Source: Candidatus Woesearchaeota archaeon
GTDB lineage: Archaea; Nanobdellota; Nanobdellia; Woesearchaeales; SKIA01
NCBI GenBank assembly: GCA_046704725.1
Contig: JBJKRI010000005.1
Span: 64,001 to 128,000 of the forward strand
Direction of reading: 5' to 3'
DNA length: 64,000 nucleotides
Part shown: positions 2,767-51,449 of the stretch, one piece after another
How the letters are laid out: every line of letters starts with the position of its first letter
How positions within the stretch are numbered: position 1 is the first letter of the stretch
Notes under the pieces: generated by a model
Told to the model about the DNA's origin: nothing
Seen by the model: only the letters and a program-made list of their open reading frames with translations
Database searches by the model: none
Position numbers and translations under genes: made by a program

Positions 2767-2925
2767 GCGTCAGTAAAGCCAGAATTCATTTATAAAGCTT
2801 GGTGTGCTTGGAGGGCTGAATAAACGCTATTCGACGATGTGCGGCCTTTTTTGGCGATAACAGGCGCATCCCCTCCGGACAAAGAGGAGGAGCCCTTATA
2901 TACCCTGCACAAGTCGCTAGGAACC

Positions 2926-4389
2926 GTGGCGAAGGACCGGAGCTCGCTGATACTGCTCGGCGGGATCGTGGTATACGCGATCCTCAAGATCGTGCTGCTC
3001 TTGCGTTACCACCAAGTACAGTGGGACGAAGCGGTCTTCCTCACCATGGGGAAATACCTCGTCACCGGGGGCGCCCAGGGATACTGGGAAGCGCTGCGCC
3101 CGCCATTGCTCCCCGTGCTGCTCAGCGGGCTGCAGGCCGTCGGGAATCCTGTGGTGATTGCGGAGCTTCTCATCGCCGCCATGGGAGCCGTCGCGTCCTA
3201 TCTGCTGTACGACCTGCTCAAGGAGTATGTGCGCCCGACAATCGCGGCGCTGGCCGCGGTGACGCTCTTGTTCTCGACGACCTGGTTCTGGTACGGGAGC
3301 ATGATCATGGAAGGGGTGCCGAGCGCCTTTCTCATCCTCCTCGCTGTCTGGCTGCACAGAAGGAAGCGCTTCGGACTCTCGGGAATGGTCGCCGCAGGAG
3401 CGTTCCTCACGCGCTTTCCAGCGGGACTCGTGCTCGTGGGCATCGCCGCGCACCACGCCTACCTGCTCTGGAGAGAGTGGCCGACGCGCGAACGGACAGA
3501 ACGCATCCGGGACGCCGTCTTGTTCGGCATCGGCTTCGCCGTGCCCGTCATCGCCTGGCTCATCCTGAACGCAGCATTGTGGGCGCCGCGCTACGGCCTC
3601 TTGCGCGGAGCGCTTTATCCCATCCTCGCGGGAGCGGGCAACGTCTTCACGCAGAACCTCTGGCTGCGCGCAGGGGAGTGGTGGTACTACCTGTGGGGGT
3701 TGCTCTTGGGACTGCCCATCAGCGTGCTCGCACTCTTCGGGGTCACCGAATTGCGGAAAAAGGACGCCTTGGTGCCCGTGGCGATCACAGGCATCCTCGC
3801 GCTCGTGTTCTTCAGCGCTATCGCGGACAAGCAGCTGCGATTCCTCATCATCGTGCTCCCAGGAATCCTCGCGCTCGTCGCCTTGGGAGCGGATAGGCTC
3901 TATCGCGTCGGGAGATACGCTCCGACGATCATTATCGCGCTCTTGGCGCTCAGCGGTATCGTGCTCGCCGTACAGGACGCCCGGATGATCCAGCAGCGCC
4001 CCGTCGCCCCGACACCCATCCTCTCCTACTACACCTACGCGCAACGGCATCCCCTGCCGGGCCTTGTCGCGGTGAGCGACCCGGGAGCGGCGTGGCAGAG
4101 CCCGAACCCTGCCATACCGACGTACTTCGAGTTCCTGCCCAACCTGCGCGCGGCAATCGCGCTGAACGCGAGCACCATATTCTTCGTGCCGTTCCAGCAA
4201 GCGTGCGATCCGGGTGATGCACAGTGCGCGAAGACTCTGCGCGCGGACGAGATCCTGCTCGAGAACCAGTACGTCCTGGTCTACCAGCAACGATACCAGG
4301 GGCGCGGCTACTACGTCTTCCGCAAGGGCGGGAAGGCGCTGCCGCTCGACATGTTCGAGAATGAGACAGGGCTCACCGCTTCTTCATGA
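2926..4389 (+). CDS. GT-C fold (family 39/ArnT-like) membrane glycosyltransferase
   Basis: WDEAVF and RPPLLP motifs, many TM helices; GTG 2926 lies about 25 nt after a CTTATATA box. Confidence 0.8.
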   Translation: MAKDRSSLILLGGIVVYAILKIVLLLRYHQVQWDEAVFLTMGKYLVTGGAQGYWEALRPPLLPVLLSGLQAVGNPVVIAELLIAAMGAVASYLLYDLLKEYVRPTIAALAAVTLLFSTTWFWYGSMIMEGVPSAFLILLAVWLHRRKRFGLSGMVAAGAFLTRFPAGLVLVGIAAHHAYLLWREWPTRERTERIRDAVLFGIGFAVPVIAWLILNAALWAPRYGLLRGALYPILAGAGNVFTQNLWLRAGEWWYYLWGLLLGLPISVLALFGVTELRKKDALVPVAITGILALVFFSAIADKQLRFLIIVLPGILALVALGADRLYRVGRYAPTIIIALLALSGIVLAVQDARMIQQRPVAPTPILSYYTYAQRHPLPGLVAVSDPGAAWQSPNPAIPTYFEFLPNLRAAIALNASTIFFVPFQQACDPGDAQCAKTLRADEILLENQYVLVYQQRYQGRGYYVFRKGGKALPLDMFENETGLTASS

Positions 4390-6383: not shown

Positions 6384-6992
6384 ATGACGGAGTCGCCAAA
6401 AGTCACCATGGAGCAGGGACCTGAATACTGCGTCTACTACGAGCGCGACAGCGAGGACATCCTGGACTTCGTGCCGGCGATCGACGCCGACCTGCGCAAC
6501 ACGGTTATCGCCGTCTGGAAGCAGGAGATCCCGCGCAAGATCCTCCAGGCCATCAGCGAAGGCGGATTGACGATGCAGGAACTGCGAAAGCGCATCGGGC
6601 ACAGCAACAGCACGCTGCACGAGAACGTCAAGAAGCTCGAGGAGCTGCAGCTCATCCGCACCAACATCATCTACGAAGGCAACAAGATCCGCGTGCTCGA
6701 GCCGAGATTCCTCTTCGTGACCAAGAACCCCAAGTTCCGCATCGCCGTGCAGCGATTCTTCCAGGGATTGTGGGTGGACAGCAGCGCGAACGAGAAGGTG
6801 CTGGAGTTCTTGTCGAAACACCCCGACGAGTACTTCACGGCAGAGGAGATCGCCGCTAAGACCGGACTGACTGTGGACAAGGTCGAGCTCGCGCTCACCA
6901 GCTGGGACAGCCAAGCGACGCGCGCTCTCAGCGACTTCATGCGGAAGCGGCCCTTCGAGAAGAAGGTCCTCTACAAGGGTTTCGCGGAGTAA
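6384..6992 (+). CDS. Winged-helix (ArsR-like) transcription regulator with two HTH domains
   Basis: TMQELRKRIGHSNSTLHENVKKLEELQLI and a second TAEEIAAKTGL HTH; host-like codon usage. Confidence 0.8.
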   Translation: MTESPKVTMEQGPEYCVYYERDSEDILDFVPAIDADLRNTVIAVWKQEIPRKILQAISEGGLTMQELRKRIGHSNSTLHENVKKLEELQLIRTNIIYEGNKIRVLEPRFLFVTKNPKFRIAVQRFFQGLWVDSSANEKVLEFLSKHPDEYFTAEEIAAKTGLTVDKVELALTSWDSQATRALSDFMRKRPFEKKVLYKGFAE

Positions 6993-8067: not shown

Positions 8068-8679
8068 ATGCTCACCGTCTCGGAGATCATGTCGCGGGAT
8101 GTCCTGCTCGTCCCCGAGCGCACGCCGATCCAGCGGGCAGCGGCCTTGATGACGGAACGGCGCATCGGGAGCCTATTGGTGACGAGGAACGACCAGCCCG
8201 TCGGCATCGTGACCGAGCGTGACTTCACACGAGTGGTCGGACGGGCCATGGACTGGCGCGCGGCCGTCAGCGACATCATGAGCTCGCCGCTGTACTCGAC
8301 GCGACCGGACGCGGATATCATCGAGGTCGCGCACATCATGGCCGCGAACCACATCAAGAAGATGCCCGTCATCAATCAAGGGAAGATTGTGGGTATGGTG
8401 ACGCAGACCGACATCATCGCGCACCTGTTCACCACCATCGAGAGCCTCGAGAGCTCCTACGCCAAGGGAGAGATCGCCGGGAAGGACTTCGCGAGGAAAT
8501 TCACGAAGGTGTTCCGGGGCTACGAGCCCGCGGTCGAGGGCGTGACCAAGCACTGGCACATGCGCTGTCGGGCGTGCAACGCCTCGTTCACCGCGGAGGA
8601 GAAGGATGGCAGCGTGGACGAGCGCTGCCCGAAATGCGGCTCCACGGACGTCGAGTTCGACAAGCACCCGCCTATATGA
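8068..8679 (+). CDS. CBS-pair protein with C-terminal zinc ribbon
   Basis: Two CBS repeats (GIVTERD, GMVTQTD) plus CRAC..CPKCGS; TATA box at about 8038-8045. Confidence 0.88.
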   Translation: MLTVSEIMSRDVLLVPERTPIQRAAALMTERRIGSLLVTRNDQPVGIVTERDFTRVVGRAMDWRAAVSDIMSSPLYSTRPDADIIEVAHIMAANHIKKMPVINQGKIVGMVTQTDIIAHLFTTIESLESSYAKGEIAGKDFARKFTKVFRGYEPAVEGVTKHWHMRCRACNASFTAEEKDGSVDERCPKCGSTDVEFDKHPPI

Positions 8680-9217
8680 GCATGAGCAAGGCGCCTGTCG
8701 CGAGCGGCAGGATGAGATTGTCGTCGAGCACAGCGATGCTCGAGTAATCGATGGATTCGAGCGCGGTCACCACGAGCGCGCCGAGCCACCAGAACGAGGT
8801 AGCGAAGGCGAGGATGACAGCGGATACGAGATAGAACGCGTACAATCCCTCCCAGGTCTTCTTCGGGCTCCAAGGCAACTTGTGCTTTCCGTGCCTGCCA
8901 ACGAGGGTGGAGGCGCTGTCGGCCCACGCGAGCACGAGCGTCGCGACGACGATGTGCGCAGGAAAGAGCAACGCGGTGAGGAGCACGCCGACCGTCATGG
9001 CGAACGCACCCTTTCCCGGGCGCTTGCTGTTCGGGCGCTCGAAATGCGTGAGGATGAACGTGCCGACGGGATTCCTGAAGGCGACGATCACCGCTTGGAC
9101 CAGGAGAAGGGCCGCGCAGACGATGAGGAAGACGGGCTGCGAGAATATGGCCGCGAGCGCGGCGAACACCGTCCCCAGGACGAAGTGGAAGAGTTGCCGC
9201 TTGGTCTCGATGCGCAT
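8672..9217 (-). CDS. Dolichol/phytol kinase-like (CTP_transf_1) membrane protein
   Basis: RQLFH, ADSASTLVG, KKTWEG, DDNLILP motifs. Confidence 0.88.
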   Translation of the reverse strand: MRIETKRQLFHFVLGTVFAALAAIFSQPVFLIVCAALLLVQAVIVAFRNPVGTFILTHFERPNSKRPGKGAFAMTVGVLLTALLFPAHIVVATLVLAWADSASTLVGRHGKHKLPWSPKKTWEGLYAFYLVSAVILAFATSFWWLGALVVTALESIDYSSIAVLDDNLILPLATGALLMLI

Positions 9218-9292
9218 GGACGGTGCGCGATGTATCTGTATAAATGCGTATGGGCCACGTACTTTTTAAAGGGGCGTTCCCGGGAACAACGC

Positions 9293-11896
9293 ATGGCGTA
9301 CGAGGTGACCATCGGCCGCAGCGAGGCCGATCGCAAGCGGCTCGGGCTGCAGGGCTGCGTGCTCTTGGGAAAGCACTACGTCAAGATGGGCCAGACATCG
9401 TCATTGTCGAACGAGGTCTTCTTGGACGTGAGCCGCAGCCACGTCGTGTTCTTGAGCGGCAAGCGTGGCAGCGGGAAGTGCCTTGTGGCGGGGACGAGAG
9501 TGACGCTTGGGGATGGATCGGTCGTTCCTATCGAACAACTCGCGGAGAGCAGGACGGACATCCTCTCGCTCGATGCGAGCTTGAAGATCTCTCCAGCCAA
9601 AAGAGAGGGTTTCTACTCGCGTCAGGTCCGGCGGGTCCTGAGTATCCAGCTACGATCGGGGCGAGAGATCACGCTTACCCCAGAACATCCGCTCCTCACC
9701 GTCCGAGGCTGGGTTCAAGCGCAGAACCTCACTGTCAACGACCGTATTGCGACGCCCCGTGAAGAAGCAGTCTTTGGGGATGAAGAGTTGGGAGATGCGC
9801 CTGTCAAGCTCCTCGCTTACTTCATCGCCGAGGGACACACGAAGGGGCATTATGTCCGTTTCGTGAATTTCGATCCTGAGATTGTGGACGACTTCAAGCA
9901 GGCGGTCGCTGAATTCGATACACGCGCCAGACTAGCAGAAGTCCGTCCTAGCCATTTCGCTGTCTATCGGAACACAGCCAAATATGACCCTGCAGGAGTC
10001 ACACGGGACGAGCGTGGCAGGATCACAGGCGGATCCATGCGTGTCCACGAGCGAACACGCTGTGATGAGTTATTGATTACGCAGGGTGTGAAAGGAAAAT
10101 TGGCGGCCGAGAAATCCGTTCCCGAAGCGGTGTTCCGACTCCCGAAGACACGACTAGCGCTATTCCTCAACCGCCTATTCAGCTGCGATGGAACGATATA
10201 CGAGAAGAAGAATTCCCACTCCTGTATGTGGCAAGTGCAGTACGCGAGCAAATCGAAACGACTCATCCAAGACGTACAGCATCTCCTGCTTCGCTTCGGG
10301 ATACTGTCTTCTATCCGTAGAAAGAACGTAAAATGCAACGGCAAGCGCTTCTTGAATTTCGAACTCACAGTTCAGGATACTAAGCGATATCTCGATGAGA
10401 TTGGTTTTGTCGGAGAAAAGCATGTCCGTGCTCAGCGCGCCAAAAAGGAGCTGAGTCAAGTGGTGCACAACCCGAATGTCGACACGATACCTCGCGAATT
10501 ATGGGACTTCTATCGTCCGAAGAGTTGGGCGGCCGTGGGGCGGACGATGGGATACGCTTACCCGAAGGCAATGCGCGAGAGCATGCGATATTCTCCCTCA
10601 AGGCAGAAGCTCCTGCAGATCGCGATGGCGGACGAGCGAGAGGATATTCGTTTGCTTGCGCAATCGGATATATTCTGGGACTCGGTCGCGTCCATCACTG
10701 AGCGGCGAGGCATCTTCACGGTGTATGATATCACAGTGCCGGGGAACCACAATTTCGTGGCGAACGATATAATCGTCCATAATTCGCACACCCTTGGGGT
10801 GCTCGCTGAGGGGATATCTTCATTGCCTCCCGATGTGGCGAAGAACATCGCGGTCATCATCCTTGACACCATGGGCATCTTCTGGACGATGAAATACCCG
10901 AACCAGCGCGACCGCGACCTGCTCGAGGAATGGGGCATGCGCCCGCACGGCCTGGACGTCGAGGTGTTCGTGCCGCAAGGGCTCTACCAGGACCTGGTGG
11001 ATGCCGGGATTCCGGCGGACAAGCCGTTCGGCATCGCGCCCTCGGAGCTGTCGCCGGGACAATGGGTGAACGTCTTCGGCCTCTCGCCGACGAGCGGCAC
11101 CGGAGCGTTGCTCGAAGAAGTTGTGGCAGAACTGCAGGAGAAGGGAGACTTCACGCTCGACCAACTGCTCAAGGCCGTGAACAAGAAGGACGCCGACAAG
11201 GCATCCTTGCGCGCGGCCGATAACCTCATCCGGGCCGCGCAGCGCTGGGGAATCTTCAGCGACAAGTCAACCCGCCTATCGGACCTCATCACTCCGGGGA
11301 AAGTGACGGTGCTCGATGTGAGCCCGTACGCGACACTGTCGGGGACGTGGAACATCCGCGCGTTGGTCATCGGCATCGTCGCGCAAAAACTCTTCACCGA
11401 ACGCATGCTGGCTCGGCGCCACGAGGAGCACGAGGAGCTCGAGAAGGAGCTGGCCTTCCAGCCCGAGGACGAGCAGGGAGACCCCGTCGTGTGGATGCTG
11501 ATAGACGAGGCGCACGAGTTCCTGCCGAAGGAAGGCAGCACGCCCGCCACCGACGCTCTTGTGACATTGCTGCGCGAAGGACGGCAGCCGGGCGTGAGCC
11601 TGGTATTGGCGAGCCAGCAACCGGGAAAGATCCACACCGACGTCATGACTCAGAGCGATATCATCATCAGCCACCGCGTGACCGCGAAAGTGGATACCGA
11701 CGCGCTCTCCATGCTCACGCAGAGCTACATGCGCGGGGACCTCGACGTATTGCTCAACGAACTGCCGCGCATGAAAGGGGCCGCTGTCGTCCTGGACGAC
11801 AGCAACGAGAAGATCTACAGCATCCGCGTGCGGCCGCGCTTCACCTGGCACGGTGGCAGCGACCCCGACGCGTTGCGCGGAGTGACCGAACTGTGA
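9293..11896 (+). CDS. HerA/FtsK-like DUF87 ATPase containing an intein
   Basis: Start MAYEVTIGR (ATG 9293); Walker A GKRGSGK|S split by the intein; LIDEAHEF Walker B; REGRQPG..ASQQP. Confidence 0.9.
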   Translation: MAYEVTIGRSEADRKRLGLQGCVLLGKHYVKMGQTSSLSNEVFLDVSRSHVVFLSGKRGSGKCLVAGTRVTLGDGSVVPIEQLAESRTDILSLDASLKISPAKREGFYSRQVRRVLSIQLRSGREITLTPEHPLLTVRGWVQAQNLTVNDRIATPREEAVFGDEELGDAPVKLLAYFIAEGHTKGHYVRFVNFDPEIVDDFKQAVAEFDTRARLAEVRPSHFAVYRNTAKYDPAGVTRDERGRITGGSMRVHERTRCDELLITQGVKGKLAAEKSVPEAVFRLPKTRLALFLNRLFSCDGTIYEKKNSHSCMWQVQYASKSKRLIQDVQHLLLRFGILSSIRRKNVKCNGKRFLNFELTVQDTKRYLDEIGFVGEKHVRAQRAKKELSQVVHNPNVDTIPRELWDFYRPKSWAAVGRTMGYAYPKAMRESMRYSPSRQKLLQIAMADEREDIRLLAQSDIFWDSVASITERRGIFTVYDITVPGNHNFVANDIIVHNSHTLGVLAEGISSLPPDVAKNIAVIILDTMGIFWTMKYPNQRDRDLLEEWGMRPHGLDVEVFVPQGLYQDLVDAGIPADKPFGIAPSELSPGQWVNVFGLSPTSGTGALLEEVVAELQEKGDFTLDQLLKAVNKKDADKASLRAADNLIRAAQRWGIFSDKSTRLSDLITPGKVTVLDVSPYATLSGTWNIRALVIGIVAQKLFTERMLARRHEEHEELEKELAFQPEDEQGDPVVWMLIDEAHEFLPKEGSTPATDALVTLLREGRQPGVSLVLASQQPGKIHTDVMTQSDIIISHRVTAKVDTDALSMLTQSYMRGDLDVLLNELPRMKGAAVVLDDSNEKIYSIRVRPRFTWHGGSDPDALRGVTEL
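9479..10783 (+). mobile_element. Intein (435 aa) with LAGLIDADG homing endonuclease
   Basis: Starts CLVAGT, TPEHP block B, LLAYFIAEG and FLNRLFSCDG LAGLIDADG motifs, VYDITV..HNFVAN..VHN/S C-terminus; visibly more A/T-rich than the host gene. Confidence 0.96.
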
Positions 11897-12282: not shown

Positions 12283-12611
12283 GGCTTTTTCTCGCGCTTG
12301 GCGATCTCCTCGACGAGGCGGGAGATATCCTTGCGCACGTCTTGCAACGAGAGCATGGTGCGGTACGCGATGTAGAAGAGCAGGATGATGGAGAGGTAGA
12401 TGACCACGGTGCTGCCCTGCTGGCCGCCGAGGAGCTGCCCGATGTCGTCGAGCACGCCCGTGAAGAACATCATCACGCTGCCCACGATCCAGATGGCCGT
12501 CCAGAACATCGCCCACGCGCCCGTGATGCGGCGGCGCTGGAACTGGATGACTGTGCTGACGACCATGATCGCCGCGACGACCAGGAAGAAGATGCCGAAG
12601 GGAGTCACCAT
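12279..12611 (-). CDS. DUF2304-like small membrane protein
   Basis: Three TM helices and C-terminal ISRLVEEIA; typical partner of DPM-like GT2. Confidence 0.8.
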   Translation of the reverse strand: MVTPFGIFFLVVAAIMVVSTVIQFQRRRITGAWAMFWTAIWIVGSVMMFFTGVLDDIGQLLGGQQGSTVVIYLSIILLFYIAYRTMLSLQDVRKDISRLVEEIAKREKKP

Positions 12612-13270
12612 CCGAACACCTTCCGCGCGAGCAGCTTGAAGCCCATGCGTATCGCCTTGAGCGGGTGCTGTCCCTTCTCGTGATAGACGATGGTGACCGG
12701 CACCTCTTTCCAGCGCAGGTGGTTGCGGCCGGTCTCCTCGACGAAGTCCGACGCATGCTCCATGCCGTCGAACGTGATGACGATGCGCTTCGCGGCCTTC
12801 TTGTTGAGGGCGCGTAGGCCGTTGTGGCTGTCGGTCAATCGGATGCCGCTGAAGATCCACATGACCAGGGCGCCGAGCTTGAGGACGAACCGCTTCCCTG
12901 CGGTGATGTTCACGGCTTTCCCGAGGAAGCGGCTGCCGAAGACGATATCCGCTTTCCCGTCCTCGATGGGCTTGAGCAGGCGCGGAATGTCAGAGACCTG
13001 GTGCTGGCCGTCGGCGTCGAAAGTGACGATCGCTTCCGCACCGTAGTCGGCGGCGTAATGGATGCCCGTGCGCAAGGCCGCTCCCTGCCCGCGGTTGATG
13101 ATGTGCTGGAGGACGGTGGCGCCCGCTTTCTCCGCGATGGACGCGGTCTTGTCCGATGAACCGTCGTCCACGATGACGACCCAGTCGTAGCCCGCCTTCT
13201 TCAGATCGCGGACGACGCTCGCGAGGCGTTTTTCCTCGTTATAGGCCGCGACCACCACGCACGTCTTCAT
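12605..13270 (-). CDS. GT2, dolichol-phosphate glycosyltransferase-like
   Basis: VDDGSSD, NRGQGAAL, FDADGQH, GSRF, TDSHNG motifs. Confidence 0.93.
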   Translation of the reverse strand: MKTCVVVAAYNEEKRLASVVRDLKKAGYDWVVIVDDGSSDKTASIAEKAGATVLQHIINRGQGAALRTGIHYAADYGAEAIVTFDADGQHQVSDIPRLLKPIEDGKADIVFGSRFLGKAVNITAGKRFVLKLGALVMWIFSGIRLTDSHNGLRALNKKAAKRIVITFDGMEHASDFVEETGRNHLRWKEVPVTIVYHEKGQHPLKAIRMGFKLLARKVFGW

Positions 13271-13420: not shown

Positions 13421-13558
13421 GTGTTCTTGCGCAAGAAACGCATCAACGGCCACACCTACTGGTACCTGGTGGAGAACCGCCGGGAGAACGGCAAGGTGCG
13501 CCAGCATGTCGTGCGCTACATCGGTAAAGCCGAACGGCTCGCGGAGGGAAGGCCATGA
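13421..13558 (+). CDS. 45-aa basic protein resembling the N-terminal DNA-binding domain of IS1634 transposases / SSV1 D-335-like domain (not in the ORF track)
   Basis: Hand translation MFLRKKRINGHTYWYLVENRRENGKVRQHVVRYIGKAERLAEGRP; ATGA coupling with the downstream gene. Confidence 0.8.
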   Translation: MFLRKKRINGHTYWYLVENRRENGKVRQHVVRYIGKAERLAEGRP

Positions 13559-16500
13559 ACAAGGACGTGATCCTCCTGTTGCTGCTGCTCGTGCCGGCCG
13601 TGCACGCATTGTCGCTGGACAACACCCTCTACGTGCAGGGACAGCCGATCGTCGTTCACACCGGAGGGCAGACCCTCACGGTGCAGACGCCCGACGGCAT
13701 CTACACGTTGCTGGGGACCAGCAACGACGTGAGCTTCCCGACGAGCACGCCTGGAAGATATGTCTTCAAGACGCCGGGAGCGACGGTGTCGGCGACCGTC
13801 TCCAGAGCGTACAGCGTGCTCCTGCGCTCGGCGAACGGCGCGAGCACGGTGCAAGCGGCGACGGACGGAACACAGACACGCATCGACATCCCCGGATTCA
13901 CCGACGTGCGCACGCAAGGGATGCCGCCCGCTTCAGTTCGCATCACACCGGACATGGGCCGGCGATGGGGCTTCGCGGACACGTACGCGGCCGACCCCGG
14001 GAACGGGGCGTACACCCTTACGCGCATCGCGAAAGGCAGCAAGCTGTACAAGTGCGCGAACTACGACTATGCGGCGGAGCGCTGCAACGGCGGCTGGAGC
14101 TATCTGCAAAGCATCACGCCCGGAGCGCCGTACACGATACGCGTCACGGGAAGCGACCCGGCGTTCGGGGAAGGGAGCACGCAAGGAACGCCAGACAGCT
14201 GCCTGTACACGGACGAGTCTGGGGCGGGGACGGCGGTGAACGCGGACTGCCTGTCGGAGGTGCAGACGGCGAACAACGGCACCACAGTGCAGGTCATCGA
14301 CAACGAGGGGAGCGGCGGAACAAGCCACATCGACGTGAACTTCACGAACACCCTGAGCGTGCAGAGCATCACCGCAGTGAACGTGACGTACCGCTACCAG
14401 CGCGTCACCAACACGCAGGTCGGCGCGACGACAGCGAGCTTCCAGATCTATACGGCGGGCGCGTGGACCACGGCGTGCACCACGACGGTGCCGATCGGGA
14501 CGTGGGGGGACTACACGTGCGACCTATCTGCGTACATCACCACGCAAGCGCAAGCCAACAACGTGGTGACGCGCGTGGTGTTCAGCACGGCGAAGAGCGG
14601 CAAGCCATCGAGCACGGGGACCGTCTACGTGGACGAGGCGTATCTCTCCATGGACTATGTCTACGCCGACATCTATCCCCCGACCTACAGCAACATTGCA
14701 TCCCAGCCAACAAGCCCCAAGACCTACGACGGCGTAGCGAGCAACTTCAGCGCGGACTGGACGGACGACGTGGGGGTCACGACCGTGTACCGGGAGGACA
14801 ACTTCACCGGGACAGTACAGAACACGACCGTGACGGGAGGGCCGACATACCAGTCGAGCGCGACGCTCGGCGCGGGGACATATGAGTGGCGTGAACTGGC
14901 GACGGACGCGGCCGGGAACTGGAACGACACGATGCCCTACCAGACCTACGTGGTGGACAAGGCGACCGGACAGGTGTATCTCACGCTCAACGGCACGCAC
15001 GGCGACCTCACCATCGACCAAGGAAGGACCGTCACGATAGGCGGCACGCGGACGGCGGGAGAGACGACGATGCTCTTGTACGAGAACGGCAGCCTGCTCA
15101 CGAGCGGCACGAGCATCAGCCTGCCGCGGACGTACAACACGCCGGGAGAGTACAACCTGACCTTGAGCATGGCCGCGACGCAGAACTACACCGCCGCGCA
15201 GGAGAGCTGGAACCTGACCGTGCTGGACGTCACGCCGCCGGGACCCATAACCAGCCTGACGAACCAGAGCGCGGGACAGACCTGGATCTACTGGACCTGG
15301 ACCAACCCGCCGGACACGGACTACAGCCATGCCGAGGTCTCCATCAACGGGACGTTCTACGCGAACGTCACCACGCCGCACGTGAACGTGACCGGACTGC
15401 TCGCCGGGACGCTGTACCAGATCGCCGTGCGGACGGTGGACACGAGTGGGAACGTGAACACGACGAGCGTGACCGGGCTCGGACAGACCCTCACCAGCAC
15501 GGACGTCACTCCGCCGAGCATCACCTCGGTGGCGGCGACGAACATACAGGACAGCGAAGCGACCATCACGTGGCTGACCAACGAGATCGCGGACAGCGTG
15601 GTGAAGTACGGCACCACGAGCGGGAGCTACACGAACACCAACACCAACCATTCCTATACGACCACGCACAGCGCGACGCTCACCGGGCTTGTCCCGAGCA
15701 CGATCTACTACTACGTCGTCAACAGTAGCGACCCCGCTGCGAACAGCAACCAGAGCGCGCAATACAGCTTCACGACCGGGCCGGACGTGACGCCCCCGCG
15801 TTACGGGAGCACGAGCGCCACGCCGGCGAGCGGCTCGACGTACCCGTTGACGGCGACGTTCAACGCGACGTGGACGGACAACGGCGCTCTCGGCATGGTG
15901 GATATCGAGGACAACTTCACAGGCGCGTGGCGCAACGACACGATGACAGCGGTCGGCGGCGGACTGTACACGTTCACCGCGGCATTGGCAGCGGGCAACT
16001 ACTCCTGGCGGAGCGTCGCGAACGACACGGCAGGCAACCGCAACAACAGCATGGCGTACATGACGTATACTGTGGCCAAGGCGGCGGGTCAGGCGCGACT
16101 CCTCCTCAACGCCTCGGACGCGAACCTGACGGTGGACCAAGACATCATCGTGAACGTCACCGCGCAACGCACAGCAGGAGAAGGGAAGATGGACGTACTC
16201 GAGAACGGTACGAGCATCGGTACGGGCAGTCCACCGGTCTACGTGCTCAAGAACTACACGATGCCAGGGACGTACCTGCTCACAGCACGGCTCAACGCGA
16301 CGCAGAACTACACTGCAGCGCAGGCGAACCACACGCTCACCGTGCTCGACACACAGCCGCCGAGCGTGACACTCATACAACCCTTCGACGGCAAGACGAG
16401 CACGCTGGCGCTCGTGCAGTTCGACTACTTGGCGTCGGACAACGTCGCCGTGCGGAACTGCACCTTGTATGTGGACGGAACAGCGAACCAGACGAACGGT

Positions 16501-17934
16501 ACCATCACCGGAGGAACGAACAGATTCTGGCAGACGTTCAACGACGGCGTGTACACTTGGAACGTGGGGTGCACGGACACGTCAGGGAACGCGGCGAACG
16601 CATCCGCGGCGCGGACGCTCAACGTGAGCATCATCCCGCCATGGATACCGACCGACGCGAACCACAGCGTGAACGGGAACGTGACCAGCCAGGTGAACGC
16701 GAGCGACAACGTGACGACATCGCTCAACAAGAACGAGATAGTGACGGTGGACACGTGGTCGCACAGCGCGCCGAGCAACGCGAACGTCTCCGGCGTGACG
16801 GCGTACTGCGAGATCGACAGCGCGGTGCGCGGTGCGCAGCTGTACTTCGAGTATTACACGGGAACGAACTGGTCGGCCGACGTGTGCCCGGGGGCGCAGG
16901 ACGGAGTGGGAACGTTCAGCTGCGACCTGTACGCGCAAGGCGTCACGAGCGTGTCGGCGCTCAACGCGTTGCAGGTGCGCTGCATCGACCGGGACGCGGA
17001 CGCCAGCTCGTCGTCGCAAGCCACGCTCGACTACGTCTACGTCCAGCCGGACTGGACGCTCATCCAGAAGCCCGACTTTGCCGTGGCGGACGCGAACCTG
17101 ACCTTGCCCGTCTCGCCGTCCGAGGGGGAGACGGTCACGCTGCACGCGAACGTGTCGAACATCGGGGTGGTGGGAGCCACCGCGCTCGTGGAGTTCTACG
17201 CCGATGGCACACCGATCGGCAACAGCAGCGTCCTCATCGATGCGGGAGGAATGGTCGAGTTCAACCAGACGTGGACCGCGCATGTGGGCCAATCGAACAT
17301 CAGCGTCGTCGTCGATCCCCTGGGCACCGTGAGCGAGCTCAACGAGACCAACAACAACGCGAGCGGCCTGGTGAACGTGAGCCTCTGGCAGACCTATTAC
17401 GGGAACACGTACAAGCGCTTCCTCGCGCTCGCCTCGGGCAACCAGTTCGCGTACAACTGGAGCAACAGCAACCTCCAGGGCAATATCTTCGCGGCCGACG
17501 CGGACGCGAACGTGAACGTGCTCGCCTTGCAGGCATTGACGCGCACGCCCTCGGGCACGTATAACTTCAGCGAGCTCTCCGCGGCGGACAGCCACCTAGG
17601 CAGCGCTGGACTGCCTGACAGCATCAACGCGACATACAGCAATGGAGGCGCACTGAAGGCGACGCAGACCTTCACCGTCTTCGGCACGCCGATCGCGAAC
17701 GTACCTACCGTGAACAGCACGAACACCTCTTCCTTCGTGACGGGGATACTCTACGACACGAGCGACGGCACCGGCGGCTATGACGGCACGCAGGACCTCG
17801 TGTTCATCACGCGCGTGAACCAATCGCACGTGGGCAAGTACGGCACGTACGACTACGAGTTGACGGTGCCGGCGTTCCTGAGAAACGACACGCCCGGGAC
17901 CAACGCTATCGACTTGTTCATCGAGATCACCTAG
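13555..17934 (+). CDS. Large secreted multi-domain surface protein (Ig-like/FN3/CARDB) with C-terminal WQxYYGN-family domain; putative tip adhesin
   Basis: Signal peptide, FN3-like repeats, CARDB motif VVVDPLGTVSELNETNN, many NxS/T sequons, no TM anchor. Confidence 0.9.
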   Translation: MNKDVILLLLLLVPAVHALSLDNTLYVQGQPIVVHTGGQTLTVQTPDGIYTLLGTSNDVSFPTSTPGRYVFKTPGATVSATVSRAYSVLLRSANGASTVQAATDGTQTRIDIPGFTDVRTQGMPPASVRITPDMGRRWGFADTYAADPGNGAYTLTRIAKGSKLYKCANYDYAAERCNGGWSYLQSITPGAPYTIRVTGSDPAFGEGSTQGTPDSCLYTDESGAGTAVNADCLSEVQTANNGTTVQVIDNEGSGGTSHIDVNFTNTLSVQSITAVNVTYRYQRVTNTQVGATTASFQIYTAGAWTTACTTTVPIGTWGDYTCDLSAYITTQAQANNVVTRVVFSTAKSGKPSSTGTVYVDEAYLSMDYVYADIYPPTYSNIASQPTSPKTYDGVASNFSADWTDDVGVTTVYREDNFTGTVQNTTVTGGPTYQSSATLGAGTYEWRELATDAAGNWNDTMPYQTYVVDKATGQVYLTLNGTHGDLTIDQGRTVTIGGTRTAGETTMLLYENGSLLTSGTSISLPRTYNTPGEYNLTLSMAATQNYTAAQESWNLTVLDVTPPGPITSLTNQSAGQTWIYWTWTNPPDTDYSHAEVSINGTFYANVTTPHVNVTGLLAGTLYQIAVRTVDTSGNVNTTSVTGLGQTLTSTDVTPPSITSVAATNIQDSEATITWLTNEIADSVVKYGTTSGSYTNTNTNHSYTTTHSATLTGLVPSTIYYYVVNSSDPAANSNQSAQYSFTTGPDVTPPRYGSTSATPASGSTYPLTATFNATWTDNGALGMVDIEDNFTGAWRNDTMTAVGGGLYTFTAALAAGNYSWRSVANDTAGNRNNSMAYMTYTVAKAAGQARLLLNASDANLTVDQDIIVNVTAQRTAGEGKMDVLENGTSIGTGSPPVYVLKNYTMPGTYLLTARLNATQNYTAAQANHTLTVLDTQPPSVTLIQPFDGKTSTLALVQFDYLASDNVAVRNCTLYVDGTANQTNGTITGGTNRFWQTFNDGVYTWNVGCTDTSGNAANASAARTLNVSIIPPWIPTDANHSVNGNVTSQVNASDNVTTSLNKNEIVTVDTWSHSAPSNANVSGVTAYCEIDSAVRGAQLYFEYYTGTNWSADVCPGAQDGVGTFSCDLYAQGVTSVSALNALQVRCIDRDADASSSSQATLDYVYVQPDWTLIQKPDFAVADANLTLPVSPSEGETVTLHANVSNIGVVGATALVEFYADGTPIGNSSVLIDAGGMVEFNQTWTAHVGQSNISVVVDPLGTVSELNETNNNASGLVNVSLWQTYYGNTYKRFLALASGNQFAYNWSNSNLQGNIFAADADANVNVLALQALTRTPSGTYNFSELSAADSHLGSAGLPDSINATYSNGGALKATQTFTVFGTPIANVPTVNSTNTSSFVTGILYDTSDGTGGYDGTQDLVFITRVNQSHVGKYGTYDYELTVPAFLRNDTPGTNAIDLFIEIT

Positions 17935-19520
17935 CGGCGCTTGCGGACCGCGTAGAGGATGAGCAGCAGCGCGACGGCGGCAGCGACGAGTATCGCCCAG
18001 AGGGGGATGCCTGGCGTGCGCACGACAAAGGGCAATGTGGAGCGCTCGTTCTTCACCAATGAAAGAGCGCGCTGTCCGAAGAAGGCCTGCAAGGAGACCT
18101 CCTGGTTGGACTGCTCGTCCTGCAATGTGAGATTGAGCGGGATGGGCAACGTCGCCGTCTTGCCGGCGGCGACGGGAGTGACCGTCGAGGTCGCCTTGAG
18201 AAGTTCTCCGCCGCTGCGGACGTTGTCCGCCTCGACGAGGACGTACGCGTCGACCGTCCCGGTGTTCTTGACCTGGATCTCGAGGGCGTGGGCCGACGGG
18301 TCGTAGGAGGCGTCTGCGATCGTGATATTGCTCTTGTCGTCGATGGTGACATGCTCTATCGTGGCGTTGCCCTGCTTGATGAGCTCGAGGGTGTTCGGTG
18401 ACGCGCCGTACAAGAGGGTGTAGGGGAGCGTGGCGCCCGGGTCGGGCATGCTGTAGCGAACGGTCTTGTAGGTCTTGGCGTCGAGGAAGAGCGGGGCGCT
18501 GTCGCCGACGGTGCCGTTCGGGCCGCTGTAGGAGCCCGTGACGTACGTGGCGATGGTCCCGGGGTTCTGGTAGGTGACGAGCAGGGCGTGCTGGCTGGCG
18601 TCGTACTGGGCCTGCCCGATCGTGACCTCGGGGTTGGCGATGGGCACGGGGAACAGGTCGAGAGCGTACTGCTGCTGGTTCTGGCCCTGCGCGAACTTGA
18701 TGAAGATGCTGATGTTCGTCTTGTCCTTGATGAACTTGGCGTTGGGGGCGAGTGAGTTGCCGACGAGGACGGCGACGCTGAAATGGTGGGCAGTGATGAA
18801 GTCCAGGACGTCCTGCGGGACGTTCTGGCGCCCGATGAACAAGACGGGATCGTTGCCCATGATAAGACCTTGCTCGATGAACTCTCCGTTGGTGAGCTGC
18901 AAGGCCTTTGTCGGCGTGAGGTTGATGAAGCGCTGGACGAGGGCGAAGTTGTCGTCGAAGCGGTCCTGCTTGTTGATGACGACCGGATGGTCCTGGGAGA
19001 GGGTGTCGTACAGCGACGAGGGGATGTGGCCGTACAAGAGGAGCTCTTGCGGGTGCTTCTCGAGGATGATGGACTGCACTCCCGTGTGTGCGAAGACGAC
19101 CGAGGCGTGGCGCATCTTGGCGTAGGTCGCGACGCTGATCGCGTTGTAGCCGTAGGCGTCGTCCACGACGACGAGGTTGGTCGTGTTCGCGACGGTCGCG
19201 AAGTGCTGGTTGGTCGCGATGGGGTCCTCGCTGGTGTATTCATTGACGGTGAAGCCCTTGCTCTGGAGCATGGCGCGGAAACCCGGCATGGCCTGGTTGC
19301 GCCCGGTGATGAGCAGCACGTCCTTGTCGCCGCCGAGCGTGCTGAGGAGACGCTGCGCCTGGGTGGCGTTGATGACGAAATGCGCGGGCATGCCCTCCAC
19401 GGAGGCGTACTGCAATCCCGTGTAGACGTCGCGCCAGTCCTTGCTGTTGACAACGACCTGCTGCCCGAGGACGGGCGCTGCGAGCAAGACGATGAGGATT
19501 GCGACGATCCACGCTCTCAT
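17931..19520 (-). CDS. Secreted protein with C-terminal TM anchor (alpha/beta repeats resembling cell-wall-binding repeat 2, then Ig-like domains)
   Basis: Signal peptide; DRFDDN..PVLFIG..VPQDV repeat-like segments; C-terminal hydrophobic helix followed by RKRR. Confidence 0.85.
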   Translation of the reverse strand: MRAWIVAILIVLLAAPVLGQQVVVNSKDWRDVYTGLQYASVEGMPAHFVINATQAQRLLSTLGGDKDVLLITGRNQAMPGFRAMLQSKGFTVNEYTSEDPIATNQHFATVANTTNLVVVDDAYGYNAISVATYAKMRHASVVFAHTGVQSIILEKHPQELLLYGHIPSSLYDTLSQDHPVVINKQDRFDDNFALVQRFINLTPTKALQLTNGEFIEQGLIMGNDPVLFIGRQNVPQDVLDFITAHHFSVAVLVGNSLAPNAKFIKDKTNISIFIKFAQGQNQQQYALDLFPVPIANPEVTIGQAQYDASQHALLVTYQNPGTIATYVTGSYSGPNGTVGDSAPLFLDAKTYKTVRYSMPDPGATLPYTLLYGASPNTLELIKQGNATIEHVTIDDKSNITIADASYDPSAHALEIQVKNTGTVDAYVLVEADNVRSGGELLKATSTVTPVAAGKTATLPIPLNLTLQDEQSNQEVSLQAFFGQRALSLVKNERSTLPFVVRTPGIPLWAILVAAAVALLLILYAVRKRR

Positions 19521-19589
19521 GCCTCGCTGCCCGCAGGGACTGCTTAAAAAAGTGTGGTATGAAGCTGCTTGCCGCTCGCTGGAAAGGTG

Positions 19590-19632
19590 TGGGGGAGAAG
19601 AACGGAGAGAAAAGAGAAAAGAAAAGAGATGC
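19590..19632 (-). terminator. Pyrimidine/oligo-T terminator after the 228-aa secreted protein gene
   Basis: Minus strand reads CTCTTTTCTTTTCTCTTTTCTCTCC just after the stop codon. Confidence 0.6.
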
Positions 19633-19638
19633 TTCTGC

Positions 19639-20325
19639 CTAGATCTCCAGGTAGAAGTAATAGCTCTGGGTCGTGGCGTTCACGGGTACCATCAGCTGGA
19701 ACTGCGCGGTGTTACCGTTGTACGTGTCCGCTCCGGCAGATATCACATCTGTGCCGAAGACGGCGCCGGTCACACCACCGGTCGAGTCCTCACCGATGCA
19801 TGTCGTCCACTGTCCAGCCGTGCCGGTGCTGTTGAATGGGGTGACTCCCGCCGCTGAGGCGATCGCCGTTCCCGCATTGCAGGCAGTGCCGCTGAACGTG
19901 TTGTTGATGCTATCGGCATCCGAGGACGTGAAACCGTAGTCCGTGTCCAATGTCGCCAGGTTGGGCGTGCTCGCCGAGGTCACGGCGGTGATGCCGTTGC
20001 CCCAGTTCACATTGCTGTCCGGGCTGGCGAAGACACCTTGGAACGTGACACCGGTCCAGTCGTAGAACGTGCTGGAGCCGTCGCCGAGCTTGAGGCTTCC
20101 CGACACGTTGCCGTAGAAACCCTGCCACTTCTGCGTCCCTTGGTTGGAGCTGACGTTTACTTCCGTGACGTTACCGCCGCCGGCGGTGACCGAGTTCGCC
20201 GCTGGTGCGGAGTACTGCCCGGTCGCCCCGATGGTGCTCTGGCCAGCTTGGGGCGCGGCGAGCGCGAACCCGATGCCGAGCGTGAACACCATGGCGTACG
20301 CCATCAGGGTGATGAGTCGCTTCAT
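19639..20325 (-). CDS. Small secreted beta-rich protein (GNVTEVNV..WQGFYGNVSG..YYFYLEI); putative major filament subunit
   Basis: Signal peptide ending ALA, Gly/Thr/Ser-rich, one Cys pair, strong SD GAGGTGA, own promoter and terminator. Confidence 0.9.
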   Translation of the reverse strand: MKRLITLMAYAMVFTLGIGFALAAPQAGQSTIGATGQYSAPAANSVTAGGGNVTEVNVSSNQGTQKWQGFYGNVSGSLKLGDGSSTFYDWTGVTFQGVFASPDSNVNWGNGITAVTSASTPNLATLDTDYGFTSSDADSINNTFSGTACNAGTAIASAAGVTPFNSTGTAGQWTTCIGEDSTGGVTGAVFGTDVISAGADTYNGNTAQFQLMVPVNATTQSYYFYLEI

Positions 20326-20447
20326 GTTGTTGTTTCACCTCGCTGGTCTCGCACCCGGGGGACTTTTTCGGCAGAACCGAAAGGATTACCCTACCAGGAT
20401 ACGATTCCTGCTTTGAGTATACCTTTGTCTACACTGCTATATAAGGG
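20326..20447 (-). promoter_or_regulatory. TATA box plus long structured 5' leader with SD
   Basis: CTTATATA at about 20438-20445 (minus strand); hairpins CAGGA/TCCTG and TTTCGG/CCGAAA; GAGGTGA before the ATG. Confidence 0.55.
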
Positions 20448-20528
20448 TTATGTGTGTACGGAGCCGAATAGAGGTTCTTTTAAAAGGAAAGAGCGGCTTT
20501 TTAAGAGAAGAGCGGCCGGAAACGACCG

Positions 20529-21758
20529 ATGCGCCTCAAACTCCTCATCACCATCCTGCTGCTCGCCCAGATCGTGCTGTTCGGAGACCTCCTGTACCAC
20601 ATCGGGAGCGGGCAACAAGGCCTTGTCGTGGCCCATGCAGGGCAAGTGAGCTTCGTGCAGATCACGCCCGCGTCGCCATGGGGCGGCTCGTCAGGGATGC
20701 TGAGCCCGGCAGGACAGACCTCCATATCCATCACTGCCAACACCATCACGCAACAGAACGTCTCCTTCAACGACCCGAAGAACAACTGCAGCCGCACAGA
20801 GCTCGTCGCCGCGGTGACAGCGACCAACGTCACGGCCGTCGGGCCCGTGGACCCCGCGTACGCCGACACGCAACTCGGCTTCGACAGCAACAGCCCGCTG
20901 TCGGTGGAACGCATGTTCACCACGCAAGAGACCTACAGCCTGGCAGGACAGAACGTGACCTTGTGGAGCACGCGCACGCACGGCGCGCTCACGGACTTCA
21001 TCGAAGGGGTCGGGCAAGCGAACGGGCAGATCGTCTTCGTGACAGAGACGGTACGCAACGGCGAGGACTACCAAGGGAATCCCGCGAACTACCAATTCAT
21101 CCTGCCCCCCGGAGCCTGGCAAGTGACCTACGACGGCACGGACGTGTGCAGCGTGCTCTCGCAATACCAGCAACCCAACGCGACGCCCACGAGCGGAAGA
21201 CTGGTGTCGGCATTGCCGGACCGCATCTGCACAGGACAGCCAACGACGATGTACGCCGCGTACACCATCGACCGCACCTACTGCCTGCCGCAGGACGTGG
21301 GCGGCCCAACGTGCGGGCCGGCCAAGAACGTGCAGGCGGAGATCGACCGCAACGGTTCGACGCTACAGACCACGACGACCGGAGCGGACGGCAGCATCGG
21401 CTTCACGCCGGGACAGAGCGCGACCTACGTGCTGCACCTGAAGAGCGCGAACCAAAGCGTGACCACGCGGTTCACGACGCAGACTTGTCTCGCAGCGGGA
21501 CAGACATCATCGGGAACGACGGTGCAAGAGCCGGCGCCGAGCGTGACGCTGCTGCCCGGACTCAACAGCTCGAGCCCGCAGACGCAATCGCCCGGCACCG
21601 TAGCGGCGCGCGTGGGAGCCGACTACACGCTCATCAGCATCCTCACCGTGCTCATCGTCGGACTCTCCTTGTACGGCTACTATGAAAGCTTCCGCGACGC
21701 GAGCCCATTCCTGCTGCGGCTACGGATCTGGTGGTACGAGCACATCATGCGCCGTTAG
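20529..21758 (+). CDS. Membrane-anchored divergent paralogue of the 19639-20325 protein; putative filament base
   Basis: N-terminal hydrophobic segment, shared motifs (ADTQLGF, IVFVTE..GEDYQGNPANYQFILP), prealbumin-like TTTGADG domain, S/T/P linker, C-terminal TM. Confidence 0.85.
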   Translation: MRLKLLITILLLAQIVLFGDLLYHIGSGQQGLVVAHAGQVSFVQITPASPWGGSSGMLSPAGQTSISITANTITQQNVSFNDPKNNCSRTELVAAVTATNVTAVGPVDPAYADTQLGFDSNSPLSVERMFTTQETYSLAGQNVTLWSTRTHGALTDFIEGVGQANGQIVFVTETVRNGEDYQGNPANYQFILPPGAWQVTYDGTDVCSVLSQYQQPNATPTSGRLVSALPDRICTGQPTTMYAAYTIDRTYCLPQDVGGPTCGPAKNVQAEIDRNGSTLQTTTTGADGSIGFTPGQSATYVLHLKSANQSVTTRFTTQTCLAAGQTSSGTTVQEPAPSVTLLPGLNSSSPQTQSPGTVAARVGADYTLISILTVLIVGLSLYGYYESFRDASPFLLRLRIWWYEHIMRR

Positions 21759-48201: not shown

Positions 48202-48254
48202 TGTCGCCGAGAACGTGATTTTCTATATAAACATTGGCCTTTCGTCCCCATCCA

Positions 48255-51422: not shown

Positions 51423-51449
51423 GGCTTTTCTCCCCTGAAAGGGCGTTTA

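Follow-up and report, generated by a model that had tools for sequence, protein, structure and literature searches.

What might four neighbouring genes for exported proteins build together on the surface of an archaeon with a small genome? The genes occupy positions 13421..21758 of the window, by which is meant the whole stretch of DNA that was analysed, the 64,000 nucleotides at positions 64,001 to 128,000 (forward strand) of contig JBJKRI010000005.1 in assembly GCA_046704725.1 of a Candidatus Woesearchaeota archaeon. The genome measures 1.18 Mb in 8 contigs and is 99.7% complete, the G+C of the window is 59-66%, and the closest relatives of the four genes are found in records titled Candidatus Woesearchaeota, so that the DPANN cell supposed in the preliminary description is a reasonable guess. 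A preliminary description of the stretch, made from its letters alone, had read three of the genes as tip, shaft and base of an undescribed filament held together by donated beta strands, and had assigned no role to the fourth (17931-19520). That interpretation is partly supported. Computation yields homology of one domain, here called A1, among the three proteins, three distinct architectures in which it occurs, conserved synteny, co-occurrence with the fourth protein (A2) and a homo-oligomer model that passes its mark. The reading preferred here, to which we give a probability of about one half, is that A1 subunits form a fibre, or chain, conserved on the surface of archaea, with a tip, a base and an obligate anchored partner. 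The four open reading frames (ORFs) were confirmed, with their translations, as follows.

13555..17934, plus strand: P0001, 1459 amino acids (aa), tip-type, with signal peptide, fn3/Ig-like adhesin-type domains, CARDB and a C-terminal A1 domain
17931..19520, minus strand: P0004 (A2), 529 aa, with signal peptide, triple CWB2-like module, two Ig-like domains and a C-terminal transmembrane helix
19639..20325, minus strand: P0002, 228 aa, shaft-type, with Sec signal peptide, an N-terminal extension of ~25 aa and A1 running to the C-terminus (YYFYLEI)
20529..21758, plus strand: P0003, 409 aa, base- or anchor-type, with signal peptide, a diverged A1, a linker and Ig-like region, a transmembrane helix and a basic tail

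The observation that one beta-rich domain of ~180 residues recurs in three neighbouring genes is confirmed by sequence comparison. BLASTP aligns P0002 with the C-terminus of P0001 at 32% identity over 190 aa (E 3e-6), and a profile made from an alignment of 31 P0002 homologues (the A1 profile) matches P0001 residues 1236-1459 with an hhalign probability of 98% (E 2.6e-13) and retrieves the same C-terminal stretch at E 4.5e-15 in a search of the whole genome. P0003 matches P0002 by BLASTP in the second half of the domain only (E 1e-4) and has no direct BLASTP match to P0001; it is joined to the family by a protein with an N-terminal A1 domain in locus L018, to which it is related by tblastn (E 5.9e-9) and which in turn is an A1 match (1.5e-18). 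An alignment (A3) of 10 N-terminal-A1 proteins of this kind, with P0003 as its first row, matches A1 with an hhalign probability of 99.7% (E 2.1e-26) across P0003 residues 29-202, a value that mostly measures the other rows because A3 was assembled from A1 matches. By its sequence P0003 falls into a recognisable subgroup in which A1 stands at the N-terminus of a longer protein. Its orthologue in L004, beside the same genes, is 38% identical over the full length (tblastn) and 45% over the aligned N-terminal ~250 residues (A3); the protein homologue search returned P0003 itself only, and its relatives came from tblastn in the fetched loci. The proposed paralogy of the three genes in one domain is upheld by these comparisons, significantly and directly for P0002 and P0001, and through intermediates for P0003.

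The three proteins differ in where the domain stands and in what it retains, and the parts concerned are these.

17341..17934, plus strand: A1 domain of P0001, residues ~1263-1459 (hmmsearch 1263-1444, E 3.2e-17; hhalign 98%)
20056..20181, minus strand: most conserved stretch of P0002, residues 49-90, with the invariant columns and the predicted inter-subunit interface
20613..21134, plus strand: A1-like domain of P0003, residues 29-202 (hhalign, alignment A3)
21624..21683, plus strand: transmembrane segment YTLISILTVLIVGLSLYGYY of P0003, residues ~366-385 (translation and a crude hydrophobicity scan)

Residues 49-90 of P0002 contain the GGNVTEVNV strand, the WQGFYGNVSG strand and an arm ending in FYDW. 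At the place where P0002 reads GGGNVTEVNV, P0003 has AHAGQVSFVQI and P0001 has the end of its CARDB domain (Pfam 1172-1270, 1.7e-13; fn3 and Pur_ac_phosph_N are the other Pfam matches of this protein), as the preliminary description had noticed of the N-terminal strand. The A1 domain of P0001, which directly follows the CARDB end motif and lacks the GGNVTE strand, retains WQTYYGN, AYNWS and a C-terminal LFIEIT; that of P0003 keeps the N-terminal strand and the W/G/D/T positions and lacks the arm. On inspection none of the proteins shows a class III signal peptide, as had been claimed, and their N-termini look Sec-type, with a hydrophobic stretch, then A-x-A/P and ~25 polar residues (P at -25 in 71/184). 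Type IV pilins and archaellins have a short basic leader that is cleaved before a hydrophobic helix kept in the mature protein.

These differences are properties of classes of proteins rather than of one locus. The loci were drawn from contigs of one genome per species, 222 of 240 pattern matches encoding a relative and 78 loci being kept, and architectures were counted with the A1 profile with the HMMER filters off (--max). Small secreted A1 proteins, 176 ORFs that often form tandems of as many as six, occur in all 78 loci, large proteins with a C-terminal A1 in 19, and longer proteins with an N-terminal A1 in 8, or 9 counting L004; a clear C-terminal hydrophobic helix is seen in 6 of 9 base-type proteins (8 loci and P0003 of the window). 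The small proteins have a constant extension of ~25 aa between signal peptide and GGNVTE (A at -2 in 168/184), and the base-type proteins have GGN(V/I)T a few residues past the signal peptide. In at least 14 of 20 tips (19 loci and the window, by eye) the CARDB end motif (..E.NE.NN..) abuts WQ..YG and GGNVTE is missing. The segment that follows WQGFYGN and ends in FY(N/D)W is present in small and tip proteins and absent from bases: by a positional count the arm tryptophan lies at +20 to +28 in 157/176 small, 13/20 tip and 0/10 base proteins, and by eye, among the tips in which the anchor motif was found, the position holds W in 16/18 and F in 2/18. The three genes, and with them their classes, thus differ at the N-terminus in the manner that a polar assembly of tip, shaft and base predicts.

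Tip payloads vary. CARDB directly precedes A1 in P0001 and in the tips of L006 and L037, and in L005 (8684-12061) a tip-type protein of 1125 aa carries a gingipain-family Peptidase_C25 domain (1.4e-54) before a complete A1 unit, so that the payloads are not adhesin-like only. At the other end, two proteins of 1215-1227 aa, in a Pacearchaeota record (L036:621-4304) and a Woesearchaeota record (L059:2094-5741), combine an N-terminal base-type A1, CarboxypepD_reg domains, a membrane helix and, on the cytoplasmic side, an ATPase of HerA/DUF87 type (Pfam 3.6e-10 and 1.4e-13); this fusion hints at an energised or transport-coupled variant.

The A1 family is large: its clusters at 50% identity have 869 representatives that match at E<=0.001, of which 318 also match at E<=1e-10. 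Its named clusters are all archaeal, and its members are mostly of 210-260 aa, with some that carry the domain at the end of proteins of 500-840 aa. The 78 loci are titled Woesearchaeota, Pacearchaeota, Nanoarchaeota, Methanoperedens, 'Methanosarcinales' and Methanogenium cariaci JCM 10550, the last (L046) being the cultured carrier. Eight positions are invariant (G51, T54, T64, W67, G69, G72, L80 and D138), and two glycosylation sequons are conserved, NVT in at least 173 of 184 members and N-x-S/T at 'GNVSG' in ~156 of 184. In scans of the four locus proteins no Pfam or NCBIfam family corresponds to A1, the library matches being only CARDB, fn3 and weak ones, and 31 of 31 A1 members have no meaningful Pfam match at E<=1. 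Neither the A1 nor the A2 profile matches a solved structure significantly by sequence. The AF2 model of P0002 is a beta-sandwich (pLDDT 80.5, with residues 23-53 below 50), for which Foldseek finds nothing in the PDB at E<=0.001 (best adenovirus knobs, E 0.17; the Cuniculiplasma filament 8rey, E 1.1); the highest Z is 4.5 in a wide VIA search, where the rows are CBM3 and fn3-like, and 4.3 in a second VIA search, and the ESM Atlas search yields unnamed archaeal clusters only. Literature searches found no earlier description of the A1/A2 family. The claim that the family is undescribed agrees with the protein-family libraries and the literature searched, and the A1/A2 system consists of uncharacterised protein families.

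The second line of evidence is linkage. A1 and A2 are present or missing together, and A2 is the most tightly coupled partner of A1. In the window's phylum 201 genomes were sampled, of which 55 contain both, 4 contain A1 alone, 2 contain A2 alone and 140 contain neither; in the order that holds the Methanoperedens locus L006 (121 genomes) both are found in 23, a single one in 1 and 1, and neither in 96. Related genomes are not independent, and the co-occurrence repeats in two distant lineages. A single A2 match is found in 43 of the 57 A2-positive phylum genomes, which have 1-9 A1 matches; the remaining 14 of 57 show 2-4 A2 matches, several of which are one gene split into adjacent pieces. In the second order there is one A2 match in 24 of 24 genomes and there are 1-4 A1 matches. 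Where A2 lies within the fetched flank of an A1 locus it often directly follows a small A1 gene. In the Methanoperedens loci L006, L009 and L029 the tip, subunit, A2 and base genes follow one another on one strand with gaps of ~15-65 bp; all four parts are also found, in another orientation, in the window and in L004, and three or four of them in L037, L038, L079, L005 and the M. cariaci locus L046. The expectation that the same architectures would stand side by side elsewhere is thus borne out, in archaea that are only distantly related. Two genomes of the window's own genus (G013 and G098, 97-99% complete) lack both A1 and A2, and two (G000 and G157) have both; with the pair missing from 2 of 4 same-genus genomes, the locus behaves like an accessory element whose parts come and go together.

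The third line of evidence is a structural model of P0002 with itself. Three copies of residues 24-228 were modelled as a homo-oligomer with the A1 alignment. The ipSAE was 0.68 (0.69, 0.64 and 0.68 in the individual runs), and the best of three controls gave 0.00; contacts agreed by at least 93% among runs, and the partner pLDDT was at least 86. In the calibration of this score, 20 of 30 solved homo-pairs and 1 of 23 single chains attained the mark applied here; the use of an own alignment and of three copies departs from that calibration. The model supports binding of P0002 to itself. The predicted interface is asymmetric, residues 36-64, 137-143, 161-168 and 202-212 of one copy lying against 63-104 and 202-228 of the other, and the closest pairs include 88-67, 88-143, 88-163, 90-138 and 69-53. 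All 8 invariant positions and 11 of 14 nearly invariant ones are in the interface list. The N-terminal region 36-64 is placed against the neighbour's 63-90 and 202-228 in a manner in which exchange and augmentation of a sheet are indistinct.

The fourth protein, P0004, is modelled by AF2 with high scores (pLDDT 91.7) as three parts.

18708..19472, minus strand: triple CWB2-like module, residues 17-271 (VIA-align)
18021..18632, minus strand: two Ig-like domains, residues ~297-500 (DSSP of the model, Foldseek; generic matches)
17937..18002, minus strand: C-terminal transmembrane helix, residues ~507-528 (model helix and sequence)

Residues 17-271 match the high-molecular-weight (HMW) subunit of SlpA, Cwp6 and Cwp8 of C. 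difficile (7acz_D, 5j72_B, 5j6q_A) with Z 19.3 and a root mean square deviation of 3.2-3.9 over 249-260 residues by VIA-align. The three tandem CWB2 repeats are recognised at the level of fold only: sequence similarity to the C. difficile modules is marginal, and Pfam CW_binding_2 is matched at E<=0.01 by 4 of 41 A2 family members, P0004 not being one of them. Unlike the C. difficile module, that of P0004 is membrane-distal in an archaeal protein with its own membrane helix, and has no peptidoglycan or PSII polymer to bind; the available part of 10.1101/2025.04.02.646754 has no archaeal CWB2. Conserved motifs recur at equivalent places of the three repeats, and the strictly conserved A2 residues cluster after the first strand of each (NS.DW.D, DDAYGYNA, TNGEFIE), which suggests one conserved ligand site. 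The Ig-like domains have generic matches at Z 7.7-9.5, including GH2 domains (up to 9.5), an archaeal pilin domain (8.4), FlaF (4p94, 8.1) and YadV (5ghu, 7.7). Homologues of P0004 measure 550-620 aa, and 15 of 41 of them have a cytoplasmic zinc ribbon after the membrane helix, which P0004 lacks. The identification of P0004 as ArlF/FlaF was tried and rejected: NF052590 scores 26.6 bits against a cut-off of 110 and over residues 366-424 only, and 4p94 matches one Ig-like domain at a Z tied with others. The name 'FlaF/FlaG family' given by JGI to several homologues is accordingly unsupported. We propose that P0004 may serve as a membrane-anchored assembly factor or anchor, a role argued from its position, its core of two Ig-like domains and a helix, and two recently described analogues considered below.

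Put together, these data suggest the following assembly. All four proteins would leave the cell through Sec. P0002 would then join head to tail, the conserved beta-hairpin arm (~68-90) of one copy docking in a pocket of the next (W67, G69, D138, T143), where it would be covered by the receiving copy's N-terminal strand region (~36-64, including GGNVTEVNV), itself predicted to sit between the neighbour's 67-81 strand and C-terminal strand. P0001, which has the arm and lacks the N-terminal strand, could stand only at the distal end, displaying its fn3/CARDB adhesin domains, and P0003, which has strand and pocket and a C-terminal helix and lacks the arm, would terminate the chain and fasten it to the membrane. 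In this model, and as an addition to the logic of the preliminary description, the arm as well as the strand would matter for polarity. The membrane-proximal Ig-like pair of P0004 may hold or prime subunits at the membrane, and its distal triple CWB2 module may bind a conserved ligand, perhaps N-glycans on the invariant A1 sequons. We infer that the oligomer is a long filament, that its strand is exchanged rather than added, the sequence in which the parts assemble, and everything about what P0004 does.

A number of results weigh against this reading. With respect to exchange, strand 51-63 folds back in cis in the AF2 monomer of P0002 and forms a hairpin with 67-81 (pLDDT ~56), so that the fold may be complete alone and the contact may be sheet augmentation or that of a small oligomer rather than exchange. 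Of the proposed donor-strand logic, the polar differences at the N-termini are supported and true exchange is conjectural; likewise, of what was expected of the shaft model, a head-to-tail chain with region 36-64 against the neighbour was obtained, in which the strand may be either exchanged or added. With respect to a long chain, the scored copy makes ~206 contacts in two of three runs and 408 in the third, and the best run (run 1) has one large interface, between copies 2 and 3, to which copy 1 adds residues 80-82 and 87 only. The whole N-terminal extension is retained in 3 of 20 tip-type proteins (L005, L015 and L066), so that the claim that tips only accept a strand is not of universal validity. 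The A1 profile matches P0003 alone at an hhalign probability of 3% (E 0.014), which is not significant, and its membership in the family, as judged by sequence, rests on the intermediates. The A1 model finds no significant match among solved pilins or strand-donating subunits (a chain of the FimD complex, 6e14_G, has Z 2.1); absence from the fold-match lists is compatible with a distant relation to them. The Ig-like domains of P0004 match the chaperone-usher chaperone YadV no better than unrelated Ig-like domains (Foldseek rank 50). Finally, the fetched flanks contain A2 in 22/78 loci, tips in 19/78 and bases in 8-9/78, most loci having tandem small A1 genes only.

Some of the same evidence can be read as display by docking without a filament, an explanation that we consider unlikely and that survives best among the alternatives. 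A1 would then be an attachment module, like SLH, CWB2 or dockerin, that fastens payloads and small coat proteins non-covalently to P0004 or in short oligomers. In line with this, A1 ends very different payloads (CARDB/Ig adhesin-like proteins and the C25 peptidase), and there is typically one A2 per genome (43/57; 24/24) for 1-9 A1 matches. At its N-terminus P0004 has the CWB2 triple by which C. difficile surface proteins are anchored to the wall (Z 19.3), the free and conserved C-terminal end of A1, YYFYLEI, might serve for docking, and WxL domains were long read as binding modules, according to a recent preprint (10.64898/2026.10.17.759780). A docking module, however, has no need of an asymmetric head-to-tail interface made of its most conserved residues, such as the passing homo-oligomer model contains, and docking gives no obvious reason why tips should systematically lack the strand and bases the arm. 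Base-type proteins moreover bring their own membrane anchor.

A two-component S-layer or sheath, in which P0004 would be an anchored stalk (like SlaB or a CWB2-bearing HMW surface-layer protein), P0002 would tile the outer face and the other two proteins would be lattice-associated extras, is in our judgement improbable. It draws on the best structural match of P0004, the S-layer HMW subunit of C. difficile with its Cwp relatives, on the stalk-like Ig pair and C-terminal anchor of the same protein, on the A1 sequons together with the AglB and glycosyltransferase genes of the window, which suit a glycoprotein coat, and on a weak match of the A1 model to a Haloferax S-layer protein (Z 3.1). Against it stands the patchy distribution of the system (A1 in 59/201 and A2 in 57/201 phylum genomes, the pair being missing from 2/4 of the same genus), which would be expected of an accessory structure rather than of the main envelope. 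The small operon of Methanoperedens-type genomes, which includes tip-like and base-like genes, arrays of up to 6 paralogues per locus, and a predicted contact that is that of a head-to-tail chain, the scored copy having a single interface in two of three runs and twice the contacts in the third, also speak for something other than a lattice. That the genes merely encode co-regulated secreted glycoproteins with a stable (binding or protective) domain and no joint assembly, P0004 being linked by a shared pathway such as glycan handling, suits the failure of Foldseek and VIA to find a known fold for A1, the majority of loci having small paralogues only and the winged-helix regulator gene that precedes them in 44/78, yet is still somewhat less probable in view of the tight co-occurrence and direct adjacency of A1 and A2 in two lineages, the passing homo-oligomer model and the class-specific differences in N-terminus and arm.

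The fibre reading may be compared with known systems, of which the WxL/Elr and Pam pili seem the closest analogues; the A1/A2 system works like them on paper and is not a member of either. Statements on these pili and on the chaperone-free fibres follow the available portions of the published accounts. The WxL/Elr pilus of Enterococcus faecalis and the csc-type WxL clusters of Lactobacillales have been reported from Bacillota only (bioRxiv 10.64898/2026.10.17.759780). Their list of parts would match that of the A1/A2 system: a small subunit that is secreted and has a strand at its N-terminus, a large tip adhesin with the same C-terminal domain, an envelope-tied base, and a helper that is anchored in the membrane, has Ig-like domains and ends in a helix. 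The two would also share a conserved core of helper and subunit with tip and anchor variably present. In the WxL pilus a subunit's N-terminal strand completes its neighbour's fold. Unlike them, the A1/A2 system has archaeal carriers, a triple CWB2 module is added to its helper P0004, and where those pili rely on an LPxTG peptide and sortase its base has a complete domain and a membrane helix of its own. The WxL domain, which we take to be PF13731, is matched by 0 of 31 A1 members at E<=1, and by none of P0001, P0002 and P0003 at E<=0.1 (Pfam); WxL clusters encode a DUF916/DUF3324 membrane chaperone next to the subunits; among families at E<=0.01 these two are absent from P0004 and 40 homologues, and another anchored protein occupies the corresponding place.

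The Pam pili of the candidate phyla radiation (CPR), described for Ca. Mycosynbacter amalyticus, are strand-exchange pili of an ultrasmall episymbiont without an outer membrane. Their chaperones are anchored in the membrane and have a helix at the C-terminus, their tip consists of one domain, and their terminator, whose N-terminus is inserted, fastens the fibre to the membrane (PMC13278184). A membrane-anchored helper and a membrane-tethered terminator are what is proposed here for P0004 and P0003; the Pam system differs in being bacterial and in its two-domain Ig-like pilins. The searches run, none of which was a direct comparison with Pam proteins, showed no relation.

Other fibres are further removed. 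Chaperone-usher pili (Pap, Fim, Caf1, Csu) are polar, with tip, shaft and terminator, an N-terminal strand completing the neighbour and growth proceeding from the base. The A1/A2 system, by contrast, has no usher or periplasm, and Pfam finds no PapD-like chaperone or usher in the four proteins or in 46 other ORFs of the window that were scanned. TasA, the AbpA bundling pili, CanA cannulae, Sulfolobus threads and the Tat-dependent haloarchaeal pili are chaperone-free strand-donation fibres; like the proposed fibre they are made of Sec- or Tat-exported, non-type-IV beta-sandwich subunits with a donated strand, and some are archaeal and glycosylated. None of these fibres is among the A1 fold matches, and there is no Peptidase_M73/TasA match in Pfam, results that leave room for a distant relation. 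TasA/camelysin-like systems have a jelly-roll domain and usually a dedicated gene for a SipW-type signal peptidase. Of the neighbour gene clusters with Pfam-scanned representatives, none of the eight most widespread is a signal peptidase.

The neighbour that does recur is a ~200-aa winged-helix protein (ArsR/MarR-like, HVO_A0114-like), encoded directly upstream of a small A1 gene by 49 genes in 44 of 78 loci (for example L072:7407-7946 and L071:7081-7746). A SipW-like peptidase had been considered as the common neighbour and was dropped; the common ~200-aa neighbour is this winged-helix protein. The window locus has no gene of the winged-helix cluster, its 202-aa winged helix-turn-helix gene (6384-6992) having fallen outside it. 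Small A1 genes are usually paired, a strong match (E ~1e-60) being followed by a weaker paralogue (~1e-40), as in L007, L010, L016, L020, L049 and L052; one of the two may be the major and the other the minor subunit, or they may be alternatives that vary. Arrays of up to six small A1 genes stand ahead of the A2 gene.

Within the window locus P0002 and then P0004 follow each other on the minus strand. P0001, on the plus strand, is convergent with this pair and overlaps the P0004 stop by four bases, and P0003, also on the plus strand, is divergent from P0002. The intergenic regions are two.

20326..20528, no strand: divergent intergenic region between P0002 and P0003
19521..19638, minus strand: spacer between P0002 and P0004

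By eye, P0002 is preceded by a TATA-like CCTTATATAG ~115 nt before its ATG and by GAGGTGA 7-13 nt before it, and its stop is followed by a T/C-rich tract. A TATA-like CTTTTTTAAG is likewise seen ~28 nt before the ATG of P0004, which is the 529-aa gene, and the claim that the putative shaft gene alone has a promoter of its own is by this inspection not borne out.

Genes of N-glycosylation are abundant in the window and include AglB/STT3, family 4 and family 2 glycosyltransferases (GT4 and GT2), an Alg9/PMT-like transferase and a polysaccharide flippase (53283-56153, 56184-57290, 58110-59648, 60354-61832, 82-798, 2839-4389 and 12605-13270), a richness that fits the invariant sequons of the A1 family; one GT2 gene directly adjoins the tip gene P0001. 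A second block of large secreted-type proteins (876, 276, 1055 and 573 aa) is encoded on the minus strand at 44796-53171; it has Ig-like, DUF11 and thrombospondin-type-3 matches, is unrelated to A1 and possibly represents another surface structure or envelope proteins. An ORF of 1096 aa at 8606-11896 contains an intein with a LAGLIDADG endonuclease (Intein_splicing 3.4e-24, LAGLIDADG_3 7.8e-21), in a host protein to which Pfam gives no identity.

To our knowledge, the mechanism by which most DPANN archaea attach to other cells has not been established, and the archaeal fibres known to us are type IV pili and a few strand-donation fibres from cultured extremophiles. We advance tentatively, as a broader conjecture than the fibre itself, that A1 and A2 define a new class of archaeal pilus: a strand-complemented fibre unrelated to type IV pili, of an origin separate from that of the chaperone-usher, WxL and Pam systems and primed by a helper anchored in the membrane, with interchangeable tip payloads (adhesins, a C25 peptidase) and with some bases fused to a HerA-type ATPase, which would be widespread in Woesearchaeota-type DPANN and in Methanoperedens and methanogen relatives and would serve host attachment in the small-genome lineages. 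Host attachment in DPANN is speculation, the system being equally present in Methanoperedens and Methanogenium cariaci. The locus provides a concrete and testable candidate for a fibre, with a large unannotated family, a clear list of parts and one cultured carrier. If the reading is true, it would extend the recently recognised principle of a membrane-anchored chaperone combined with strand exchange from Gram-positive and CPR bacteria to archaea, would give a function to the archaeal CWB2 module, and would make A1 a mark of surface-displayed payloads in metagenomes.

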